DNA of 64,000 bases from a virus (lineage: Duplodnaviria; Caudoviricetes). The translations under genes were made by a program, and so were the position numbers. Shown piece after piece: positions 1-44,523 of this stretch. Within the stretch, counting starts at the first letter, position 1. Each line of letters opens with the position of its first letter. The stretch lies in IMG/VR virus record IMGVR_UViG_3300033075_001504, positions 12,001 to 76,000 of that record; one strand, 5' to 3'. The notes under the pieces are model-generated. The model ran no database searches. It saw only the letters and a program-made list of their open reading frames with translations, and was not told the origin of the DNA.

Positions 1-999
1 GGGCACCACCACGGTGGACTCGGTGGAGGACACCCCGTCGAGCATGAAGACGTGCTGGGCGCCCACCAGCGCGCCCTGGCTGGCCTGGCTGTCGCTGCCG
101 GTGGCGGTGAGGATGGTGGTGGCCACGTAGGAGGGGGTCGAGCCCGAGCGCGAGGGGACCAGGTAGGAGTCGGTCGTCCCGGTACGCAGCACGAAGCCCT
201 TGCCCTGCCCGCCGTCCAGGCCGCCCTGCCACACGCTGGTGGAGTCGGTCCCGCTCACCGCGACGTGCCCAGCAGAGGTGACGCTGGATCCTGAGGCGCC
301 GATGAGCTCGATGTCCTTGACCCCGGCCTCGGCGTCGCCCGTCCCCTGGGCCACCGCGAAGTAGGTCGAGTCCAGCCACACCGCATGGCGCACCACGCCC
401 GAGCGCGCGTAGCCGGTGAAGGGGTTGACCGTGCCTCCCGCGCTCAGAGCCGTCCCGCTGATCTGGAGGGTCTGGTAGAAGCCGGTGTTGACGCTGGCCC
501 CGTCGGTGAGGTTGTCGCCCCAGAGCAGGACGTGGGTCGGGCTGGCGGCCAGCACGGCGTACTGGATGGTGTTCCACGGGCTCGCGGTGAAGTTGGCCGC
601 GTCGTAGGTCCACGGCGTCCCGATCACCGGCGTGGAGGGGTTGGACCAGTCCACCAGCCAGACCCGGGTGAACGGGCCGTAGGTGCCGCTCATGACGTGG
701 GGCACGGAGTAGAAGACGGCGAAGACCCCGTTGGACACCGGGCGGAGCCGGAACTGGTGGTCGCCCGAGACCTGGGAGGCCGCGCCGTAGCCCGACCAGG
801 CCAGCGAGCCCACCTTGGAGCCGGTCTCGGTGTAGAGCGAGAGGCGGTGGGTGAAGGCCTTGGCGTCCCAGGTGCACACCACGAAGGTCGAGGTGGCGCA
901 GGCCACGACCGTGTCCACCGGTCGGTCGCAGTAGTGGGCGTCCACGTCGGTGGGGATCGCGTCCCGGTGCACCAGGGGGAGGCCGAGGATCGCGCTCAT
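1..999 (-). CDS. Minor tail/virion protein, beta-rich (3'-partial, runs off window edge)
   Basis: Not in ORF track. Manual translation from ATG at 999 (ATGA overlap with upstream stop at 996): MSAILGLPLVHRDAIPTDVDAHYCDRPVDTVV..., open for 333 codons to base 1, Ser/Thr/Gly/aromatic-rich. Confidence 0.7.
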   Translation of the reverse strand, partial: MSAILGLPLVHRDAIPTDVDAHYCDRPVDTVVACATSTFVVCTWDAKAFTHRLSLYTETGSKVGSLAWSGYGAASQVSGDHQFRLRPVSNGVFAVFYSVPHVMSGTYGPFTRVWLVDWSNPSTPVIGTPWTYDAANFTASPWNTIQYAVLAASPTHVLLWGDNLTDGASVNTGFYQTLQISGTALSAGGTVNPFTGYARSGVVRHAVWLDSTYFAVAQGTGDAEAGVKDIELIGASGSSVTSAGHVAVSGTDSTSVWQGGLDGGQGKGFVLRTGTTDSYLVPSRSGSTPSYVATTILTATGSDSQASQGALVGAQHVFMLDGVSSTESTVVVP

Positions 1000-11948: not shown

Positions 11949-14647
11949 GCTGCTCCTTCGATGAGGGTGTCCATGGCCCCGGAGTCCAGCAGGATGCCCA
12001 GGTGCCCGATGGTCTTGTCGCCGGTCTGGAGGTAGGGCTTGATCCCGGTGATCTTGCCGCTGGTCTCGTAGCAGCGCCGGGCGAAGTCGTCCAGGTCGGC
12101 GAAGGGCCGGTCCCCGCGCGCCTTGATCAGCTCGGTGGAGACCACCGCACCGATCTTGGGGATGGACAGCAGCCCCTTGCGCACACCGCGCTTGTCCACG
12201 GTGTAGGTCGCGCCCGAGAGGTTGATGTCCGGGGACAGGATGCGCACCCGCCGCTTGCGCGCGGCGCGCAGGTAGGTCTGCTCCTTGGTCCGCCCGGTCT
12301 TCTTGTTCTTGTTGCTCTCCCCGGCCGCCACCGCCAGCAGCGCCGCGTAGTACTCGACGGTGTGGTGGGCGATGAGGTAGGCGCAGGTGTAGGCCATCAC
12401 GCCGTAGGCCGTGGCGTGGCTGATGTTGAAGCCGTAGTTGCCGAAGCCCTCGACCGCGTGCCAGAACCAGGTCCAGTCCTCGTCGGTGAAGCCGATCTCG
12501 CGGGCGGTGGTCTCGATCATCGGCTGGTACTTCTCGATGATCCCGCGCGCCCAGGTGATGTTGTCGTTGGAGGACTTCACCGCCTTGAGGAACAGGGTGA
12601 GGTCGTCGGGCCCGAGGCCGAGCTCGCGCAGCACCGAGATGACCTGGTCCTGGAACAGGATGATGCCCTGGGTCTTCTCGGTGTGGCGCATGAGCAGGTC
12701 GTGGCGCTGGGGCAGCCGCTCCTGGCCGTGCTTGCGCTTGATGTAGGACTCGGTGTTGCCCGACTCCATCGTGGCCGGGCGGAACAGCGCCATGGCCGCG
12801 ATGACCTCGTTGATGGTGGTCGGCTTGAGGCTCTCGCAGCCCCTGCGTGCGGCCCAGCCGTCGAGCTGGAACACCCCGTCAGTCAGGCCGTTGCCGATCG
12901 CGGTGTAGGTCTTGGAGTCGCTCCACGGGATCCACGAGCGGTCCAGCCAGTCCTCGTAGCCCTTGCCGATGAACTCGAAGCAGTGCCGGATCACCGTGAG
13001 GGTCTTGAGGCCCAGGGCGTCGAGCTTGACCAGCCCGAGGTTCTCGACCTCCTTCATGTCGTACTGGGTCACCATCGTCTTGCTGGAGGCCACCTGCATG
13101 AGCGGCACGAGGTCGCGCAGCTCCTCCTCGGTGGTGGTGAGCACGAGACCGGCCGGGTGCACGCCGTAGGACTTGCACACCTTGCGGTCGTGCAGCGCCT
13201 TGAGGTCGCGCTGGTCGGAGGACGGCATGTCCTTCCACTCCAGCTTGGGCAGGTCCTGCCGGTTGCGCACGGTGTTGTACGCGACCAGCAGCGACCCGGC
13301 CTCCGAGCCGTCGTCGTCCTCGTCCGCGTCGATCTTGTAGCGGGTCCAGGTGCCGATCTGGTGGACGGCGAAGCGGCCGCGCAGCCAGGCGATGAAGTCC
13401 TTGCGCCGGTCGTGCTCCACGTCCAGGTCGATGTCCGGGGGCTTGGTGCGGTCCCGGCTCAGGAAGCGGTCGAAGGGCAGGCCCCACTTGATCGGGTCGA
13501 GCTGGGTGATGCCCAGCAGCCAGCAGAGGATGGAGCCCGAGGCCGAGCCGCGGGTGGAGAACAGGATCCTGTTGTCCCTCAGCCACTCGCAGCACTCCTT
13601 GACCAGCAGCAGGTAGCCCGCCATGCCGGTCGCGGTGATGACCTCGAGCTCCTCCTCGATGCGCGCCTCGTAGCGCGGACCCAGACGCTGGCCCGACAGG
13701 CGCATCGCCTCCAGCGCCGTGTAGACGTCCCGACGCAGGTCCCCGTCGGGGTCCGCGACAGTGAGCGGGATGTTGTAGGCGTAGTGGTCGAGCGCCGGGA
13801 TGCTCAGGTCATGCGCGGCGAGAAGGTCCCTGAGCCCTTCACGACCGGCACGAAGACGCTCGCCAGCGTGGTGACGAAGGAACCAGGACGTGCTTGCGAG
13901 GTGGAATCCGTCTCCGGGGAAGACGGCGTCGTCGGGGTCGTCACCGTAGGCGACGAGTCGCTTGAAGTTGTCGTGGTCATCCTTGTCCTCCGGCATCACG
14001 TAGTGGGCATCCTGCGTGAGCACGCAGGGCAGACCCATCTCCTGTGCTATCCCCAGCATCGCATCGGCTACCAGGCTGTCGTCCCAGCCGTCGCCGTGGT
14101 CGATGCCGTGGTTCTGGAGCTCGACGTAGAAGCGGTCGAAGGCACGGGCCATCTGCCCGAGGATCGCCCGGGTGCCCGCCTCCTCTCCCGCTGCGAGCAT
14201 CTGGATGGGCAGGCCGAAGTAGCACCCGGAGGTGGCGGCCACGCCCTTGAGCAGCCCGGCCTCGGACCACTCGGTGATGTCACCGAGGTCGATGAGGGGC
14301 TTGTGGTAGAAGTTCTGGTGCGTGAGCGTGGACAGCCGCACCAGGTTGCGGTAGCCCTCGGTGGTGTAGGCCAGCACGCACATGTGGTGGCGCTTGGCCT
14401 TCTTGTCCGCGCGGTCGCGCACGACGTAGATCTCGCTGCCGGGGAAGGGCTTGATCCCGGCCTTGGCAGCCGCGCGGTAGAGCTGGGTGGCCGCGGCCAT
14501 GTTGCCGTGGTCGGTGATCCCCAGCGCGGGCTGGCGCATCTCCGCGACGCGGTCCACCATCGACTGCACCGAGGGCATGCCGTCCTGGTAGGAGTAGCGC
14601 GAGTGGCTGTGCAGGTTCCAGATGTCGGGGTCGGCAGCGATCCTCAT
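11945..14647 (-). CDS. dnaE: DNA polymerase III alpha subunit (PHP plus polymerase core, 900 aa)
   Basis: LHSHSRYSYQDG, LGITDHGNM, TQDAHY, RGSASGS, PPDIDLD, HPAGLVL, KLDALGLKT, YGFNISHATAY, PDINLS. Confidence 0.97.
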   Translation of the reverse strand: MRIAADPDIWNLHSHSRYSYQDGMPSVQSMVDRVAEMRQPALGITDHGNMAAATQLYRAAAKAGIKPFPGSEIYVVRDRADKKAKRHHMCVLAYTTEGYRNLVRLSTLTHQNFYHKPLIDLGDITEWSEAGLLKGVAATSGCYFGLPIQMLAAGEEAGTRAILGQMARAFDRFYVELQNHGIDHGDGWDDSLVADAMLGIAQEMGLPCVLTQDAHYVMPEDKDDHDNFKRLVAYGDDPDDAVFPGDGFHLASTSWFLRHHAGERLRAGREGLRDLLAAHDLSIPALDHYAYNIPLTVADPDGDLRRDVYTALEAMRLSGQRLGPRYEARIEEELEVITATGMAGYLLLVKECCEWLRDNRILFSTRGSASGSILCWLLGITQLDPIKWGLPFDRFLSRDRTKPPDIDLDVEHDRRKDFIAWLRGRFAVHQIGTWTRYKIDADEDDDGSEAGSLLVAYNTVRNRQDLPKLEWKDMPSSDQRDLKALHDRKVCKSYGVHPAGLVLTTTEEELRDLVPLMQVASSKTMVTQYDMKEVENLGLVKLDALGLKTLTVIRHCFEFIGKGYEDWLDRSWIPWSDSKTYTAIGNGLTDGVFQLDGWAARRGCESLKPTTINEVIAAMALFRPATMESGNTESYIKRKHGQERLPQRHDLLMRHTEKTQGIILFQDQVISVLRELGLGPDDLTLFLKAVKSSNDNITWARGIIEKYQPMIETTAREIGFTDEDWTWFWHAVEGFGNYGFNISHATAYGVMAYTCAYLIAHHTVEYYAALLAVAAGESNKNKKTGRTKEQTYLRAARKRRVRILSPDINLSGATYTVDKRGVRKGLLSIPKIGAVVSTELIKARGDRPFADLDDFARRCYETSGKITGIKPYLQTGDKTIGHLGILLDSGAMDTLIEGAA

Positions 14648-38360: not shown

Positions 38361-41300
38361 CTAGATGGTCGACCCGCGCAGCTTGTTGGCGCGGGAGATT
38401 GCGGCGATCTTGGCGGCCATCTTCTCGGGGTCGTTGGTCTGGACCGCGATGGTGGCGCCGGTGATGTTGTAGTTGGTGGTCGAGACCGTCCGGCTGTTCA
38501 CCGTGCGGTTGTTGGTGGTGCGGGTGCTCACCGACGCCGGGGCGTTGCGGTAGCCCGAGTGCTCGCCCTGCGTCCCCGAGGAGTTGCTGGTCGCGTCCAT
38601 CGAGGTGAAGAACTCCGGGAAGGCCGCCTTGATCGTGTTGAGCTCGTTCATGGTGATCTGGCCGGTCTTGCCCAGGTTGTTCTTCACCAGCGTCTGGGCC
38701 TTGTTGAACATCGTGGTGAAGTCCCCGACGTACTCCTTGCTCATCAGGTCCAGGTCCTCCTTGGCCCGGGCCTGCTGGGTCTTGCGCGCGGCGGCCATCC
38801 GGGCCATGCCCTTGTTGAACTCCTCGATGCCGCGGCTCATCGCGGTCTGGAAGTCCTTGGCCGAGCGGGTGTAGGACTGGTTGAGGTCGGAGGTCACCAG
38901 CGAGCTCGTCGCGCTCTGGCGGGACTTGGCCAGCGCGTTGAACTGGTTGATGTCGTTCTTGGTCATCTCCTGGGCGAGCTCCTCGACCTGCTGGGCGTTC
39001 GCCGGGTTGGCGAGGTCGAGCATGTCGATGACCTGCTGGCTCAGGCCGAGCTTCTTGAGCCTGCGCAGGTTGGCCACCTGCTGCTTGATCCGGCGGGTCT
39101 GGTCGGCCAGGTTCTGCTTGATCGTCCCGACGTCGGCGGTGTAGGTGGAGTAGACCCGCTGGAACGGGTTGTAGATCGTCTTGGCGGCGTCCTCCTGCAT
39201 CCGCTTGACGCTCTTGTGGTAGTCCTCGTAGGAGTGCCGGGACTGGGTCTGGAAGTCCTCCTGGGCGTAGCCGCGCTGGCGGTAGTAGTCCTCGTCGCTG
39301 CGCTTCATCGACCGGGCGAAGTCCTCCTGGGCCTTCACCATGTTCTGGAGGTACTGGTAGTAGGACGCCTTCTGGCCCTCGTAGGCCTGCTTGGCCTCGA
39401 TCTGGCGCTGCACGGTCTCGGTGGTGGGCGCCTCGTTCATCACCGACTGGTAGCGGGTCTGGGCCCCACGCAGCCGCCCCACCCGGCCCTGGTAGACGTC
39501 GGCGAACTGCTGGTCCACCCCGGCCAGCCCCTGGGCCTGCTTGGCGAGGTTGTAGAGCGCACCGTACTTGGCGTCCGGGGTGGACGCGCCCTCCTCGGCC
39601 AGGATGCCCTGGAGGATCGAGGGGATCTTGTTCACGTCGCCCTTGGCCTGCGCCTTGGCCTTGGCGTAGAGCTGGAGGGCGGCGTTGGCCAGCGTGGAGG
39701 AGTCCCCGCTGGTGAGCGCCTGGTTGAGCACCCCCGAGGTGATGTCGAACCCCTTGCCCTTGAGGCCCTTCACCGTGGGGTCCTCGCTGGACACCATGAG
39801 CTTGGGGAGGTTGCCCGCCGCGGCCTTGGCCGAGCCGAAGACGACGCCCTGGCCCTCCCAGGACTGCCGGTACTTCCCGAAGTCGGAGTCCGAGCCCTGG
39901 GCGGCGAGGAACTCGGCGGCCGAGCGGTACTCGCCCTTGCGCTGCATCATCGACGCGGCGGTGTAGTTGAAGTTGAAGCCGTACTGCTTCTCGATCTGCG
40001 CGATGGCCTCGGTGCGGTTGGCGGCCGCCGTCGGGCTGCGGTCGTCGGGGTTGGAGAAGACCTTGTCCAGCAGCGCGTAGAGCCCGGCGACCTTGGCCTG
40101 GTTGGCGGCCTTGTCGCCGTAGAGCGAGGCGTTGGCGGTGTACTGGCCGACCGCCCCGAGCCCCAGCTTCGTGCGCGCCTGGGCGTCGTCGCTGGCGTCG
40201 CGGCCGAAGAAGCTCCAGAACCCGCTGGAGGCCGACTGGTCGATCCCGCTGCCCATCGCGTTCGAGATGTCGTCGATCCCGAACTTGCCGCCGTTCATGT
40301 AGAGGTCGATCGCCTTGTTGCCCTCGCCGAAGGGAAGCGCGCGGCGGACGTCCTGCATCGCGGACTTGATGACGTTGGGATCGTTGGTGTTCAGCGTGCG
40401 CAGGTAGGCGGCACCCTGCTCGGCGGTGTTGATGCCCGAGGTGTTGGGGTTGGTGGTCTTGTTCCCCATGTCGGTCTTGGCCGCCCGGGCGGCCTGGGAC
40501 AGGCTGGTCACCTCGGAGGAGGCCTGGAAGGCCGCGCTGGCCAGGTTGGCGATGTTGGTGGTCGCCTGCCCGAGAGCCGAGGTGTAGGGGGTGTTCTGGT
40601 TGTAGTCGGCCATCGTCATGCCCGCGATGCGCTGCTTGCGCTCGTCGTTGGCATTGAGCAGGTAGGACACGCCCATCGCCCCGGCCAGGCCCATCCCGAT
40701 CGGGCCGCCCAGGAAGTTCAGCGCCGCGCCACCGGCCGAGCGGAGCAGCCCGCCGCCCATCTGGGCGAGGCCGCGGACGCCGCCGGTGGCCTGCGCCGCC
40801 ACGAAGGCTCCGGTGGCCTTGGTGGCGGCGAACATGGACCGGGTGAAGCCGTCCGTGCTCATCACGGCACCCTTGAGCGCCGCCCCGAGGCTGATGCTGC
40901 TGCTGCCGCGTGCCCAGCCCTCGACCGGGGACTCGCGGTAGAACCGGGCCATGTCGTTGACGCCGACCGTCCACAGCCGCGGCACCATCCCGAGCGCGCG
41001 GTCCCGCATGCCGCTCACGCCGCCCCCGGAGGGGGAGAGGAAGCCGAGGTTGGACCCCAGCCGGTAGCCCAGGGACTCCAGGCGGCCCTGGGTGCCCGCC
41101 TGGTAGCGGTTGAAGTACTCCCCGGAGGGGGCGCCGCCAGCCCGGGCGCTGCCGAAGGCCTCGCCGAAGGCGCCCCGCGCCCTGGAGTTGCGCAGCCAGT
41201 TCAGCGCCGCCACCGGGGCCAGGAAGGAGCCGAGCTGGGCCATGATGCCCGCCCCGCCCATCGCGAGGCCGCCGACCCCGGCCATTGCCCCGCCCGCGGA

Positions 41301-42485
41301 GAAGACCCCGGTGAGCTTGGCCGCCTGGCCGAGCATGGTGTTGACGACGTCGAGGCTCTTGGTCAGCGGGGTGAGCCAGAACTGGCCGATCGAGGTGCCG
41401 ATGTCCTGGGTGATGTTGCGGAGCTCCTCGAAGGCGTCGGTGAGCCCCTTGGTCGCCCCGTAGCCGGTGTCCGTGCTGCCGTCGCCGTAGCCGCCCATGG
41501 CAGTCTGGACGAGCTTCTCGATGCCACCGGCCTGGGCGGCCATCGTCTGCATCGCCTTGGCCGCGCGGGCGCCGTCGATGCCCATCCGGTCCAGGATCTG
41601 GATGGACTGCGGGCCGCCCTTGGCGATGGCGTTGAAGACCTCGAGCACGCCCTTGGTCGAGCCCAGCCGCTTGAACTGGTCGACGGTCACCCCGACGATG
41701 GAGGCGTACTTGGCCAGCCCCGGACCGCCCGACTGGGTCTGGCGGACGATGTCGGACAGCATCGAGTTGAAGGTGTTGGCGGCCACGTAGCCGTCGTTGC
41801 CCGCCTGGACGAAGGCGGCCGACAGGCCCAGGACCGCCTTCTCGTTCATCCCCGCCACGCGCGCGATGGGCGCGATGGAGTTGGAGAACTCCGCGACGCT
41901 CTGAGCCGAGACCCCTGCGGTGGCCGAGACCTTGAGCAGCGAGTCGGTGAACTTCTGCATCTGGGTCGCGCCGCCGTCCAGCGTGCCCATCTGGCGGCCC
42001 AGTGTGATCATCGCGTTGGCGATGCTGGTGGCGCTCTCCCCCGCCGCCTTGCCGGTCTTGAGGAAGACCTCGGTCATCCCGCCGATCTGGCTCTGGGCCG
42101 AGAGGCCCATCTTGGAGATGGCGGTGGCGGTCGCGGTGATCTCGCCGCGCGAGACGCCCATCTCGCGGGTGAGCTGGCGCAGCTCGGTGCTGACCCCGGA
42201 CACCGAGCGCCCGGTGATGGCCGCCTGCGCGGACAGCGTGGAGAGCTGCTTCTCGTAGTTCGCGCTCATCGCGACCATCGAGCCGAGCATCGCCAGGTCG
42301 GCGGCCGCGAACAGCGTCATCTTCTTGCCGACGCGGCGCTGGAGCCCGTCGAGCTTGGTGGCCAGGGTGTCGACGGCGTGGGCCAGCGTGTTGGTGTCCT
42401 GGGTGGCCCCCTGGACCCCGGTGCGGTAGTCGCTGACGTCGGCCTTGATGTTGACGTTGGCGTCGCGGGACGCGTCCTGGCTCAT
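38361..42485 (-). CDS. Tape measure protein (1374 aa)
   Basis: NVNIKADVSDY start, Ala/Gly-rich amphipathic helices, position after chaperones. Confidence 0.93.
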   Translation of the reverse strand: MSQDASRDANVNIKADVSDYRTGVQGATQDTNTLAHAVDTLATKLDGLQRRVGKKMTLFAAADLAMLGSMVAMSANYEKQLSTLSAQAAITGRSVSGVSTELRQLTREMGVSRGEITATATAISKMGLSAQSQIGGMTEVFLKTGKAAGESATSIANAMITLGRQMGTLDGGATQMQKFTDSLLKVSATAGVSAQSVAEFSNSIAPIARVAGMNEKAVLGLSAAFVQAGNDGYVAANTFNSMLSDIVRQTQSGGPGLAKYASIVGVTVDQFKRLGSTKGVLEVFNAIAKGGPQSIQILDRMGIDGARAAKAMQTMAAQAGGIEKLVQTAMGGYGDGSTDTGYGATKGLTDAFEELRNITQDIGTSIGQFWLTPLTKSLDVVNTMLGQAAKLTGVFSAGGAMAGVGGLAMGGAGIMAQLGSFLAPVAALNWLRNSRARGAFGEAFGSARAGGAPSGEYFNRYQAGTQGRLESLGYRLGSNLGFLSPSGGGVSGMRDRALGMVPRLWTVGVNDMARFYRESPVEGWARGSSSISLGAALKGAVMSTDGFTRSMFAATKATGAFVAAQATGGVRGLAQMGGGLLRSAGGAALNFLGGPIGMGLAGAMGVSYLLNANDERKQRIAGMTMADYNQNTPYTSALGQATTNIANLASAAFQASSEVTSLSQAARAAKTDMGNKTTNPNTSGINTAEQGAAYLRTLNTNDPNVIKSAMQDVRRALPFGEGNKAIDLYMNGGKFGIDDISNAMGSGIDQSASSGFWSFFGRDASDDAQARTKLGLGAVGQYTANASLYGDKAANQAKVAGLYALLDKVFSNPDDRSPTAAANRTEAIAQIEKQYGFNFNYTAASMMQRKGEYRSAAEFLAAQGSDSDFGKYRQSWEGQGVVFGSAKAAAGNLPKLMVSSEDPTVKGLKGKGFDITSGVLNQALTSGDSSTLANAALQLYAKAKAQAKGDVNKIPSILQGILAEEGASTPDAKYGALYNLAKQAQGLAGVDQQFADVYQGRVGRLRGAQTRYQSVMNEAPTTETVQRQIEAKQAYEGQKASYYQYLQNMVKAQEDFARSMKRSDEDYYRQRGYAQEDFQTQSRHSYEDYHKSVKRMQEDAAKTIYNPFQRVYSTYTADVGTIKQNLADQTRRIKQQVANLRRLKKLGLSQQVIDMLDLANPANAQQVEELAQEMTKNDINQFNALAKSRQSATSSLVTSDLNQSYTRSAKDFQTAMSRGIEEFNKGMARMAAARKTQQARAKEDLDLMSKEYVGDFTTMFNKAQTLVKNNLGKTGQITMNELNTIKAAFPEFFTSMDATSNSSGTQGEHSGYRNAPASVSTRTTNNRTVNSRTVSTTNYNITGATIAVQTNDPEKMAAKIAAISRANKLRGSTI

Positions 42486-43299
42486 GTCACCTCCTGGCGC
42501 GCGCGGCGGGCCTCGAGCATCTGGCGCTGGTGCTCGCGGTGGGCCGCCTCCATGGCGAGCTGGCGCTGGGCCGCGGCACGGGTGTTGGTGGGCTCCAGCA
42601 CGACGTAGGTACCGGGCTGGTCGGTGCCCTGGTCATGCTTCACGTAGCACCCCTGACACAGCTTCTCCACCGGCTCGTAGGCATGGCGGGAACCACCCTG
42701 GAGCGGGTCCCACTCCCAGTCTGACGTGCCGCACAAGGAACACCGGTCGTTCTTGTGCCCGAAGAAGGCGATGGCCTTCGCCTGGTCCTCCGGGGACCAA
42801 CCGAGGAACTCCGAGTGGGGGATGCCGTGCTCGGAGCAGATCGTCAGCTCGACCTCGAGCTGGCGGTCTCGCCTCAGTCGGTCCCGGTAGTAGGGACCAG
42901 CTCGAAGCCGCTCTGGCACAGGCCCATCGCGGTGACCAGCAGGCCGCCGAGCTCGCCGGAGGACCAGTCCGGGGACTTCCAGAGCTCGCGCCAGTCCTCC
43001 TCGGCGATCTTGGGCTCCACGACCACCCGGCTCAGCAGCGCGGGGGCGAGCTTGTCCTGGTCGTAGACGTCGCCCTTGGCGATGCCCTGCTTGGTCGGCG
43101 GGCACTCGTCGATGAGGGCGTCGAACTCCCGGCGGCTGATCGCCCGGAACAGGAAGGAGACCGGCTCGTCGGAGCCGGGGATGGTGACGGTGACCTCGCG
43201 CTCCGCACGCTTCTTGCCCTTGAGCATGTCCAGCGTGGCGCGCTTGGCGGCCTTGGACTGCTCGGTGCGGGCGGCGACGACCTCGGTCTCGGTGGGCAT
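42482..43299 (-). CDS. Tail assembly chaperone, -1 frameshifted long form (shift near 42891-42898)
   Basis: Downstream frame PYYRDRLRRDRQLEVELTICSEHGIPHSEFLGW has no good start and overlaps the chaperone end at GGTCCCTA. Confidence 0.75.
42874..43299 (-). CDS. Tail assembly chaperone (141 aa)
   Basis: FRAISRREFDALIDECPP..YDQDKLAPALL; between tail tube and tape measure. Confidence 0.85.
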   Translation of the reverse strand: MPTETEVVAARTEQSKAAKRATLDMLKGKKRAEREVTVTIPGSDEPVSFLFRAISRREFDALIDECPPTKQGIAKGDVYDQDKLAPALLSRVVVEPKIAEEDWRELWKSPDWSSGELGGLLVTAMGLCQSGFELVPTTGTD

Positions 43300-43641
43300 G
43301 GCGCTCCTTCGGTGGGGTTAGACCTCGACCGAAGGCTAGTTGGCAGAGACGGAGACTGTCTCCCGGCGCGCCGCGCGGCCTGCGGCCTGGCGAGCACGGA
43401 AGGAGGGGCCGCGACGACGCTTGCGGGCAGGCTGGAGCGGAACGCCCACGATCAGGGGGACCGGGGTGAACAGGATGCCGTGGCAGGCCAGCACCTCGTT
43501 GCGGCGCTCCGAGCGCAGCAGGACGTCCAGCTCGAGCAGCGTGATCATCTGCGCGGTCTGGGAGATGGGGGAGTGCAGGGCGAGGGTGTCGCCCGGCGTC
43601 AGATGGATCGCACCAGGGGAAGGCATGGCCCGGACCCTACA

Positions 43642-43672
43642 ACACGAACGGCCCCCGAAGGGGCCGTTGTGT
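43642..43672 (-). terminator. Terminator hairpin closing the ncRNA
   Basis: aacggcccc-ttcg-ggggccgtt on minus strand, extended by acac/gtgt. Confidence 0.8.
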
Positions 43673-43932
43673 GGAAGCCGGGGTTCCTGTCTACCCGGAC
43701 CGGGGGATAGGTGCTACAGCCAGTAGTTCCCTCGGACGACGACCTACCTGCCAGCAGAGGACTTTGGGCTTGCAAGGCCCCGAGCTTCCCAGCCCAGGGG
43801 CTGAGTCTTGTTCCCGGCCCTCAGCAGGTTGCCCTCGGGCCTGGCGTCGAATGTCCTCGGTCGTCTGCGTTACAGCCGCACCTGTAGGTGCTGTTGTTCC
43901 GCCACTTCCTATCCCGGGCGCCCCTGGGAATG
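43645..43932 (-). ncRNA. Putative ~290-nt structured non-coding RNA
   Basis: Promoter upstream, terminator downstream, four nested helices read from the sequence (see finding). Confidence 0.65.
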
Positions 43933-43938
43933 GAGCAG

Positions 43939-43967
43939 AGCCTGCCGGAGAGTCGCCAAGGTGTCAA
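43939..43967 (-). promoter_or_regulatory. Promoter TTGACA-N17-CAGGCT
   Basis: Perfect -35, just downstream of the tail-tube terminator. Confidence 0.7.
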
Positions 43968-43973
43968 GCAGCA

Positions 43974-44020
43974 CGCAGGGGCGGCGCAGCGTCTTCCCCA
44001 GCCGCCGTACCGCCCCTGCG
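43974..44020 (-). terminator. Hairpin after tail tube gene
   Basis: cgcaggggcgg / ccgcccctgcg 11-bp inverted repeat. Confidence 0.65.
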
Positions 44021-44040
44021 ATCGCTCCCCACCAGGGAGA

Positions 44041-44523
44041 TCAGGTGACGACCGCCGCCTCGTTGGGCTCCTTGTAGATCGCGCAGGTGACCTGGAAGGT
44101 CTGGAGCGTGTTGTTGGCCATGCCCGCCATCGAGCGCGAGACCACGATGACCGGCCACACCTCGACGGTGTCGCCCGTGATCGGCTTGTGCAGGGCGCCC
44201 AGGCCGCCGAAGCGGCTGATGATGAAGAAGCCCTTGGTCTTGCGCGGCAGGGTGGTCCAGGCGGTGTCGGCCGTGTCGTCGCGGTAGAAGTCCGCGCTGA
44301 ACTGTGCCGAGCTGGTGCCGACCGTCGAGGTCTCGAACAGGGTGTCGAAGCTCGGCGTGGGGAGCACGTTGCCCTGGGTGCTGGCCGTGATGCTCATGGT
44401 GAACGGGGTCAGGTTCACCGCCGCCGTCACCTCGGCCGCAGTGGGCACGAGAGCGGCAGAGGCGATGCCGCCCGAGCTCGCGAACGCGATGTAGCTCGCG
44501 TCGTTCGGGATGATGCGGGCCAT
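44041..44523 (-). CDS. Major tail (tube) protein (160 aa)
   Basis: PTAAEVTAAVNLT, ADFYRDD, GDTVEVWPV, EPNEAAVV; position. Confidence 0.9.
   Translation of the reverse strand: MARIIPNDASYIAFASSGGIASAALVPTAAEVTAAVNLTPFTMSITASTQGNVLPTPSFDTLFETSTVGTSSAQFSADFYRDDTADTAWTTLPRKTKGFFIISRFGGLGALHKPITGDTVEVWPVIVVSRSMAGMANNTLQTFQVTCAIYKEPNEAAVVT

Follow-up and report, generated by a model that had tools for sequence, protein, structure and literature searches.

A divergent, GC-rich RNA of the manA lineage in the tail operon of a wastewater phage, probably an RNA gene in its own right

manA RNAs are catalogued as a motif of marine cyanophages and gamma-proteobacteria that occupies putative 5' untranslated regions (5'-UTRs) and has no known ligand or role (PMC2864571). 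In vitro, these RNAs are reported to assemble into pentamer-based decamers and a 60-mer RNA-only cage, using loop-loop contacts in peripheral helices (2026 preprint 10.64898/2026.07.01.735769). Herein, we describe an RNA of this lineage in an uncultured, siphovirus-like phage of wastewater and activated sludge, with a genome of ~76 kb and a GC content of 68%. The window that we analyzed comprises 64,000 nucleotides (positions 12,001 to 76,000) of the 76-kb IMG/VR virus record IMGVR_UViG_3300033075_001504, with a local GC content of about 68–70%. On its minus strand, to which all window features described below belong, the order is a major tail (tube) protein gene, a 414-nt gap, a 96-codon open reading frame (ORF96), a tail assembly chaperone-like gene, and the tape measure gene. 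An earlier sequence-only reading had placed an independently transcribed, structured RNA in the gap. We establish the homology, fold, conservation pattern, and accessory status of this RNA: it is a real folded RNA, and it extends a known family by a divergent variant instead of founding a new class. We consider it probable that the RNA at positions 43668–43928 belongs to the manA RNA lineage (Rfam RF01745) as a divergent, GC-rich member, and that it is most likely a gene of its own.

The manA-type core at 43668–43928 matched RF01745 over model positions 1–192 with 45.3 bits (E 2e-10), below the gathering cut-off of 55.2 bits that Rfam sets for manA; at gathering level, Rfam returned no match in the window. 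No other candidate was present anywhere in the 76-kb genome, over which the RF01745 match has E 5.6e-12. Of two sister copies of the RNA, L028 scored 48.0 bits, and L032, with 54.4 bits, missed the cut-off by 0.8 bit. Our own covariance model (CM) R2, built from 11 low-GC manA RNAs only, found the same coordinates (37.2 bits, E 6e-9, positions 1–200) and no second match in the 64-kb window; it also recovered L032, L028, and a further RNA, L311. A half-model built from this clade alone (R1) recovered marine manA weakly (E 0.026–0.19), at loci pre-selected by a shared motif, which gives this result little weight. The conserved nucleotides that manA leaves unpaired are present, namely the GGRAGUGRC-N-GAAYAA junction, UAA-N-G, and the loop of hairpin H8. 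The unpaired strings that match manA read GGAAGUGGC-N-GAACAA, UAA-N-G, CUGUAG, and GGUA-N-ACAG-N-AA-N-CC, and the junction columns are invariant in 9/9 aligned sequences.

The helix plan is that of manA: a 5' hairpin, followed by a closing stem around H2, H3, H7, and H8. The 5' hairpin P1 (CCCAGG-GGCG-CCCGGG, 43913–43928 in the CM alignment) has an A.C mismatch in the window copy, where L028 and L032 have a G-C pair. The 5' strand of the closing stem, GGAAG (43905–43909), pairs with CUUCC (43673–43677) and leads into the conserved junction UGGCGGAACAA; the conserved junction of the window RNA as a whole reads GUGGCGGAACAA. Hairpin H2, with a UACA apical loop and the UAACG junction behind it, spans 43866–43902 (CM alignment, RNAalifold, and minimum free energy (MFE) fold). 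The 5' strand of H3, GACGACC, and its extension GAGGAC (43853–43865) pair with 43738–43744 and 43757–43762, and enclose a variable inner domain (43763–43852) that replaces manA hairpins H4–H5. The 3' core (43699–43762) holds the 3' strands of H3, a small H6-like hairpin, UGCU-GGCA-GGUA, which may be what remains of H6 in the inner region, and H7. Helix H7 consists of CCGAGGG...CCCCCGG with an inner CUAC/GUAG, and its A.C mismatch is turned into U.G in L032 by changes on both sides. Hairpin H8, CCGGG-UAGACAGGAAC-CCCGG, and the 3' strand of the closing stem, CUUCC, complete the core at 43673–43698. In total, 30/32 model pairs form in the window copy. Unconstrained MFE and centroid folds of 43668–43932, and likewise of the L032 copy, gave the manA layout, as did RNAalifold on the three copies.

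Many of these pairs are maintained by different bases. Of the 30/32 pairs formed in the window copy, 17 differ on both sides from the cyanophage P-SSM4 copy and eight from L311. H3 covaries with L311 (GCGAGG/CCUCGU), and two pairs of H8 are compensatory both to L311 and to canonical manA. The closing stem carries a G-C to A-U change relative to the canonical GGGAG/CUCCC, a change common to the true manA members L304, L309, and L330. Both-side changes were found in 22/35 pairs of an alignment whose counts have to be read with its construction in mind, as it was fitted to the model, which favours pairing; in it, 93.6% of cells pair, compared with 74.4% in shuffles (0/500 as high) and 33–50% with partners slid. 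Compared with L032, the two halves of the core are 97.5% and 96.9% identical, and the variable domain, where L032 has a 24-nt deletion, is 55% identical. Identity is 65% in the region of the hairpin that follows the tube gene, and 18% in the spacer before ORF96, which is longer in L032. The difference between a core of ~97% and an inner domain of 55% identity indicates that selection keeps the manA core, not the inner domain.

The likeness to described manA RNAs thus covers the full-length CM match, the helices P1, closing stem, H2, H3, H7, and H8, and the junction and loop nucleotides; in addition, the RNA is phage-borne and precedes an ORF on the same strand by a few tens of nucleotides. The differences are in composition, size, and setting. 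The window RNA has a GC content of 65% compared with about 45%, and is about 260 nt long compared with about 190 nt. The three-hairpin inner domain of manA, including a GNRA hairpin, is a ~90-nt variable domain here. The carrier is a wastewater siphovirus-like phage rather than a marine T4-like cyanophage or Photobacterium, and the RNA lies in a tail operon with its own promoter-like site and hairpin terminator. The multimers reported for manA in vitro use contacts in peripheral helices, and the peripheral domain of the window RNA is different.

Two further sets of RNAs share features with the window copy. GGAAG-type manA members (L304:7372–7574, L309:3701–3902, and L317:808–1009 with 106–107 bits, and L330:4746–4959 with 81 bits) have the closing stem of the window RNA, GGAAG/CUUCC, and a junction, GGAAGUGGCAGAACAA, that is nearly the same. 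They differ in having a GC content of about 47–50%, marine cyanophage-type contigs as carriers, a short standard inner domain, and scores above the cut-off. These members bridge the gap between the window clade and the canonical copies of about 180 bits. The manA-like RNA L311 (252 nt, about 59% GC; positions 575–826, minus strand, of IMGVR_UViG_3300006847_000005; Rfam 34.5 and R2 31.7 bits) is, like the window RNA, a sub-threshold manA with a GGAAG/CUUCC stem and an enlarged inner domain, in which both have the string CUGCUGAGG; H3, H2, and H8 covary between the two. L311 differs in that tRNA genes, not a promoter and a terminator, flank it, its H8 loop has no ACAG, and ORF96 was not seen in 1.2 kb of its locus. 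It occupies a slot in an array of eight or more tRNA genes, with spacers of 3–4 nt and no ORF to control, and as a free RNA it would be liberated by tRNA processing.

The RNA and ORF96 together form an accessory insert of ~660 nt, at 43340–43999 by approximate comparison with L005/L006. Homology to relatives (blastn) ends at about 44000–44040, at the tube stop codon or the hairpin that follows it, and restarts at about 43339. The insert was absent at this site in all relatives fetched with the tube protein (25/25); in these, the chaperone gene directly follows the tube gene, as expected by the sequence-only reading, in which the adjacency of the two genes was the normal state. The manA model gave no match at E up to 1 anywhere in the records of five relatives, of which two are complete genomes that have terminal repeats. 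Contigs from wastewater RNA libraries contain a form in which 43376–44024 is swapped for 54 other letters; since this insert-skipping form occurs in the same samples, phages with and without the insert coexist. On these comparisons, the insert is an optional unit in one sub-lineage of the phage. Phage morons, in the sense of Hendrix and Juhala, are optional units between conserved genes that bring their own promoter and terminator. The window insert resembles them in its location between two conserved late genes, its promoter- and terminator-like signals, and its absence from close relatives. It differs in that what the two signals enclose is an RNA, with the protein gene beyond the terminator, and in that no integrase was found.

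A promoter-like TTGACA-N17-CAGGCT (43939–43967) precedes the RNA, with TTGACA at 43967–43962 and CAGGCT at 43944–43939. Both hexamers are invariant in L028–L032, while the spacer has 2–3 changes. The RNA would be transcribed from this site with a start near 43932, and the UUCG hairpin at 43672–43642 would end the transcript, giving a folded RNA of about 265–295 nt; both ends are placed by these signals. The terminator hairpin (ACACAACGGCCCC-UUCG-GGGGCCGUUCGUGU, 43642–43672) has a compensatory C-G to A-U change in L032, and in one RNA-library contig another GC-rich hairpin begins at exactly 43668, behind the same RNA core. Two RNA-library contigs, of 244 nt (43675–43918) and 249 nt (43669–43917), lie wholly on the core and come from two bioreactor libraries of one study, which is only a weak hint of a separate unit. 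Their ends near 43669–43675 coincide with a branch in the sequences (loose end at 43668), so they are no mark of an RNA end. In runs X17 and X18, only the RNA core was covered, and the uncovered flanks are no evidence. In runs X6 and X9, contig depth was about 92 for the RNA and 66–81 for ORF96, similar values that cannot rank expression.

The RNA probably acts by virtue of its structure, possibly through self-association of the kind reported for marine manA in vitro, and not as a metabolite sensor for ORF96. As a candidate for loop-loop complementarity in self-assembly, we considered the loop CUUGCAA, which contains the self-complementary UUGCAA; L028 has CCUGCAA. We rejected it, since UUGCAA alone is suggestive but not fully conserved. 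One may go further and suppose that a manA-type RNA has spread beyond marine cyanophages and reached wastewater phages of high GC content in the form of a mobile "RNA moron". In infected cells, it would form RNA-only multimers like those of marine manA in vitro, with the Arg-rich ORF96 as a possible protein partner in a small ribonucleoprotein; we regard this extended scenario as speculative and quite unlikely.

The sequence-only reading was borne out in part. TTGACA, CAGGCT, its four helix pairs, the 9-nt pair CCCAGGGGC/GCCCCTGGG, and the C(UUCG)G hairpin are all where it had put them, and its central proposal, a structured, functional RNA that the phage encodes on the minus strand and that brings its own hairpin terminator and promoter-like hexamers, stands. 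The stretch that it described as ORF-free indeed has no coding signature when GC content at third codon positions (GC3) is compared per frame: GC3 is 0.54–0.72 in every frame of the gap, compared with 0.86–0.98 in the neighbouring genes. Two of its four nested helices, GACGACC/GGTCGTC (H3) and GAGGAC/GTCCTC (the H3 extension), are upheld by homology and by relatives. The other two, GGGATAGG/CCTATCCC and CTACAG/CTGTAG, compete with the conserved P1, closing stem, H2, and H7, and are unused in the MFE fold of the transcript; by our own estimate, about 0.7 matches of eight nucleotides are expected by chance in a 300-nt GC-rich stretch. The multiloop stems fared no better, as GCTGAG/CTCAGC and the TGGGCT arm of TGGGCT/AGCCCA lie in the segment rewritten in L032, partly by the 24-nt deletion. 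A switch or pseudoknot between the 5' CCCAGGGGC and the internal GCCCCUGGG had also been proposed; GCCCCTGGG is deleted in L032, and CCCAGGGGC is the 5' arm of P1 plus part of its loop, P1 being perfect in the relatives. The 3' motif is present with one C more than had been quoted (ACAGGAACCCCGGCTT), and what had been likened to the CR-V motif of RNase P is the conserved terminal loop of manA H8 (GGUA-N-ACAG-N-AA-N-CC).

Several observations weigh against membership in manA. All copies of the clade stay below the gathering cut-off (45.3, 48.0, and 54.4 compared with 55.2 bits), and canonical cyanophage copies score far higher (P-SSM4 184 bits, P-SSM2 182 bits), which makes the window copy a remote one. 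The inner H4–H6 domain of manA, three short hairpins inside H3 of which H5 has a GNRA loop, is not recognisably kept: the Rfam model flagged the H4 pairs as non-standard and opened a 58-nt insertion in the window copy, and it skipped H4–H6 in L032. The clade consists of three distinct sequences only, of about 90–98% identity, so its internal covariation is thin, with double changes in 3/94 pairs and none in the manA core. The window copy does not fold more stably than its shuffles (z -1.5 with leader bases and -0.39 for 43668–43932), an outcome that the sequence-only reading had named as contrary to its claim; the L032 copy has z -2.55, and at 65% GC this comparison is a weak test. The low scores could be read to mean that the RNA, although real and structured, is no manA homologue, and that the sub-threshold match arose by convergence or GC-driven chance in an unrelated new family. 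The different inner domain, a habitat and base composition unlike any described manA, and the weak recovery of marine manA by the clade-only half-model, at pre-selected loci, agree with such an origin. We nevertheless judge it very unlikely: two models match at full length and in register with E 1e-9 to 1e-12, the conserved unpaired strings are those of manA, the 17 pairs with both bases different from P-SSM4 still pair, and the gap in score is bridged by true manA members (81–107 bits) with the GGAAG closing stem and the same junction bar one variable base. Among the further proposals of the sequence-only reading, a new class finds no support, and an RNA polymerase decoy like 6S or Ms1, a self-cleaving ribozyme, and an RNase P-related RNA with a 5'/internal switch are extremely improbable. 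Nothing speaks for a decoy, ribozyme, or RNase P relative except that the listed complementarities exist and that the MFE fold with extra 5' leader bases uses GGGAUAGG/CCUAUCCC. Searches at E up to 10 (43500–44150) returned no 6S, Ms1, RNase P, or ribozyme family, and none at gathering level in the window; the full-length manA match appeared instead. The "CR-V" string belongs to H8, the partner of the switch is lost in L032, CUGUAG is absent from L311, and the counterparts of GGGAUAGG/CCUAUCCC could not be aligned there.

Another reading is that the RNA works in cis as the leader of ORF96. Whether as a riboswitch-like element or as an attenuator that responds to a protein or an RNA, its manA-type fold would control read-through of the UUCG hairpin or translation, with ORF96 as the real payload of the insert. 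In Rfam and in Weinberg 2010 (PMC2864571), manA counts as a putative 5'-UTR element. The RNA ends 41 nt before ORF96, a distance within the range of canonical manA copies that precede a gene, and in 94 marine copies the median distance to the next ORF of at least 40 amino acids is 32 nt; in all ORF96 loci (6/6), the RNA lies upstream on the same strand. ORF96 is under purifying selection and has no Shine-Dalgarno sequence, so its expression may need help, and the terminator starts right after the closing stem, the usual place of an expression platform. The signals that would make the RNA a separate unit are imperfect as well: an E. coli-type promoter scan was negative, CAGGCT is a weak -10 element by E. 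coli rules, the terminator hairpin lacks a clean U-run, and the RNA-library contigs show neither transcript ends nor levels and come from libraries of a kind that can contain DNA. However, RNAalifold and MFE folds revealed no conserved alternative (antiterminator) pairing. A distant GGGGCC copy, considered as an antiterminator, was rejected with 6 bp only. The mutually exclusive pairing of the sequence-only reading is deleted in L032, and the spacer from hairpin to ATG, only 18% identical in L032, is also longer there. A strong hairpin stands between the RNA and ORF96, and the variant that swaps this whole hairpin with the RNA core unchanged is hard to square with a platform coupled to an aptamer. 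Furthermore, no ligand is known for any manA RNA, and L311, a related high-GC manA-like RNA, lies between tRNA genes with no ORF to control. On balance, we regard control of ORF96 by a leader as unlikely, and favour a manA-type RNA that is most likely its own gene.

Together, the window copy and L311 suggest that the manA family is wider than the Rfam cut-off captures, that selection keeps the conserved core and not the inner domain, and that some members may be independent RNA genes rather than leaders. The finding bears on the question of whether manA RNAs are leaders or genes of their own. The clade offers a divergent natural test case of whether self-assembly is a conserved and biologically used property of manA, and provides Rfam curators with sequences to widen the manA model.

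ORF96 (43336–43626), co-inserted with the RNA, encodes an orphan basic protein of 96 codons with an Arg-rich tail. The codon pattern of ORF96 marks it as a real gene: it has a GC3 of 0.86, and its differences from L032 are distributed over the codon positions as 7/6/20, of which 15 are synonymous and 11 nonsynonymous changes, compared with 3–4 synonymous and 22–24 nonsynonymous in other frames. The purifying selection on ORF96 is seen in both the codon-position pattern and GC3. It ends with the Arg-rich stretch RKRRRGPSFRARQAAGRAARRE, in which all codon changes relative to L028 are synonymous (8/8), and the product could be an RNA-binding peptide. Homologues were found in two clusters only, both with the same layout. 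There was no match in Pfam, PHROG, or PADLOC, no relative in viral contigs, and no usable match in the protein atlas; the AlphaFold2 model had a mean pLDDT of 54 and was left unused.

The sequence-only reading had placed the RNA directly between tube and chaperone genes. The tube gene is indeed its upstream neighbour (44041–44523; PF25595 Phage_TTP_16, 1.1e-18; phrog_2491 major tail protein, 2e-13), but directly downstream lies ORF96, and the chaperone-like gene follows only at 42874–43299. This gene matched PF08890 Phage_TAC_5 below the cut-off (0.0018) and phrog_19248; its start and its GAAGGAG ribosome-binding site line up with relatives. The tape measure gene is at 38361–42485. A GC-rich hairpin 3' of the tube gene (43975–44018, read from the letters) may be a terminator or attenuator of the backbone. 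Its arms are rewritten in L032 with complementarity kept, and insert-free relatives also keep a hairpin there; probably it is an attenuator setting the ratio of tube to downstream tail proteins.

Near-identical DNA is present in wastewater, activated-sludge, and bioreactor runs. Among isolated phages (n=50,697), there was no match to the gap (blastn) or to the tube protein (tblastn), and the protein atlas returned no host taxa for the tube protein. No integrase or recombinase was found, which gives no evidence of lysogeny; lysogeny is neither shown nor excluded. A search for tRNA found none.

We also scanned for more GC-rich copies with exact and degenerate motifs; in viral contigs, the scans gave nothing, or chance 16-mer matches only. 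Five matches in genome contigs were taken as chance on judgement, not by individual tests. Metagenome contigs gave 62 matches: the 15 highest-GC loci had no manA by Rfam, and the remainder were canonical marine copies and two divergent ones recognized by R2. The latter are manA-like RNAs at L191:1264–1484 (minus strand, 46.5 bits, 55% GC) and L176:74–241 (minus strand, 29.7 bits, 51% GC). At L165:109–371 (also L186 and L221), a gap of ~263 nt in a dense tRNA array contains CTGTAG...GGGGTATACAGAAATCCC; it has no manA match (Rfam E 0.01, R2 E 0.1), and may represent one more structured RNA housed among tRNA genes. In P-SSM4 (AY940168), the hypothetical CDS PSSM4_169.1 (164884–165057) overlaps the canonical manA RNA at 164829–165014 and is likely a spurious gene call.

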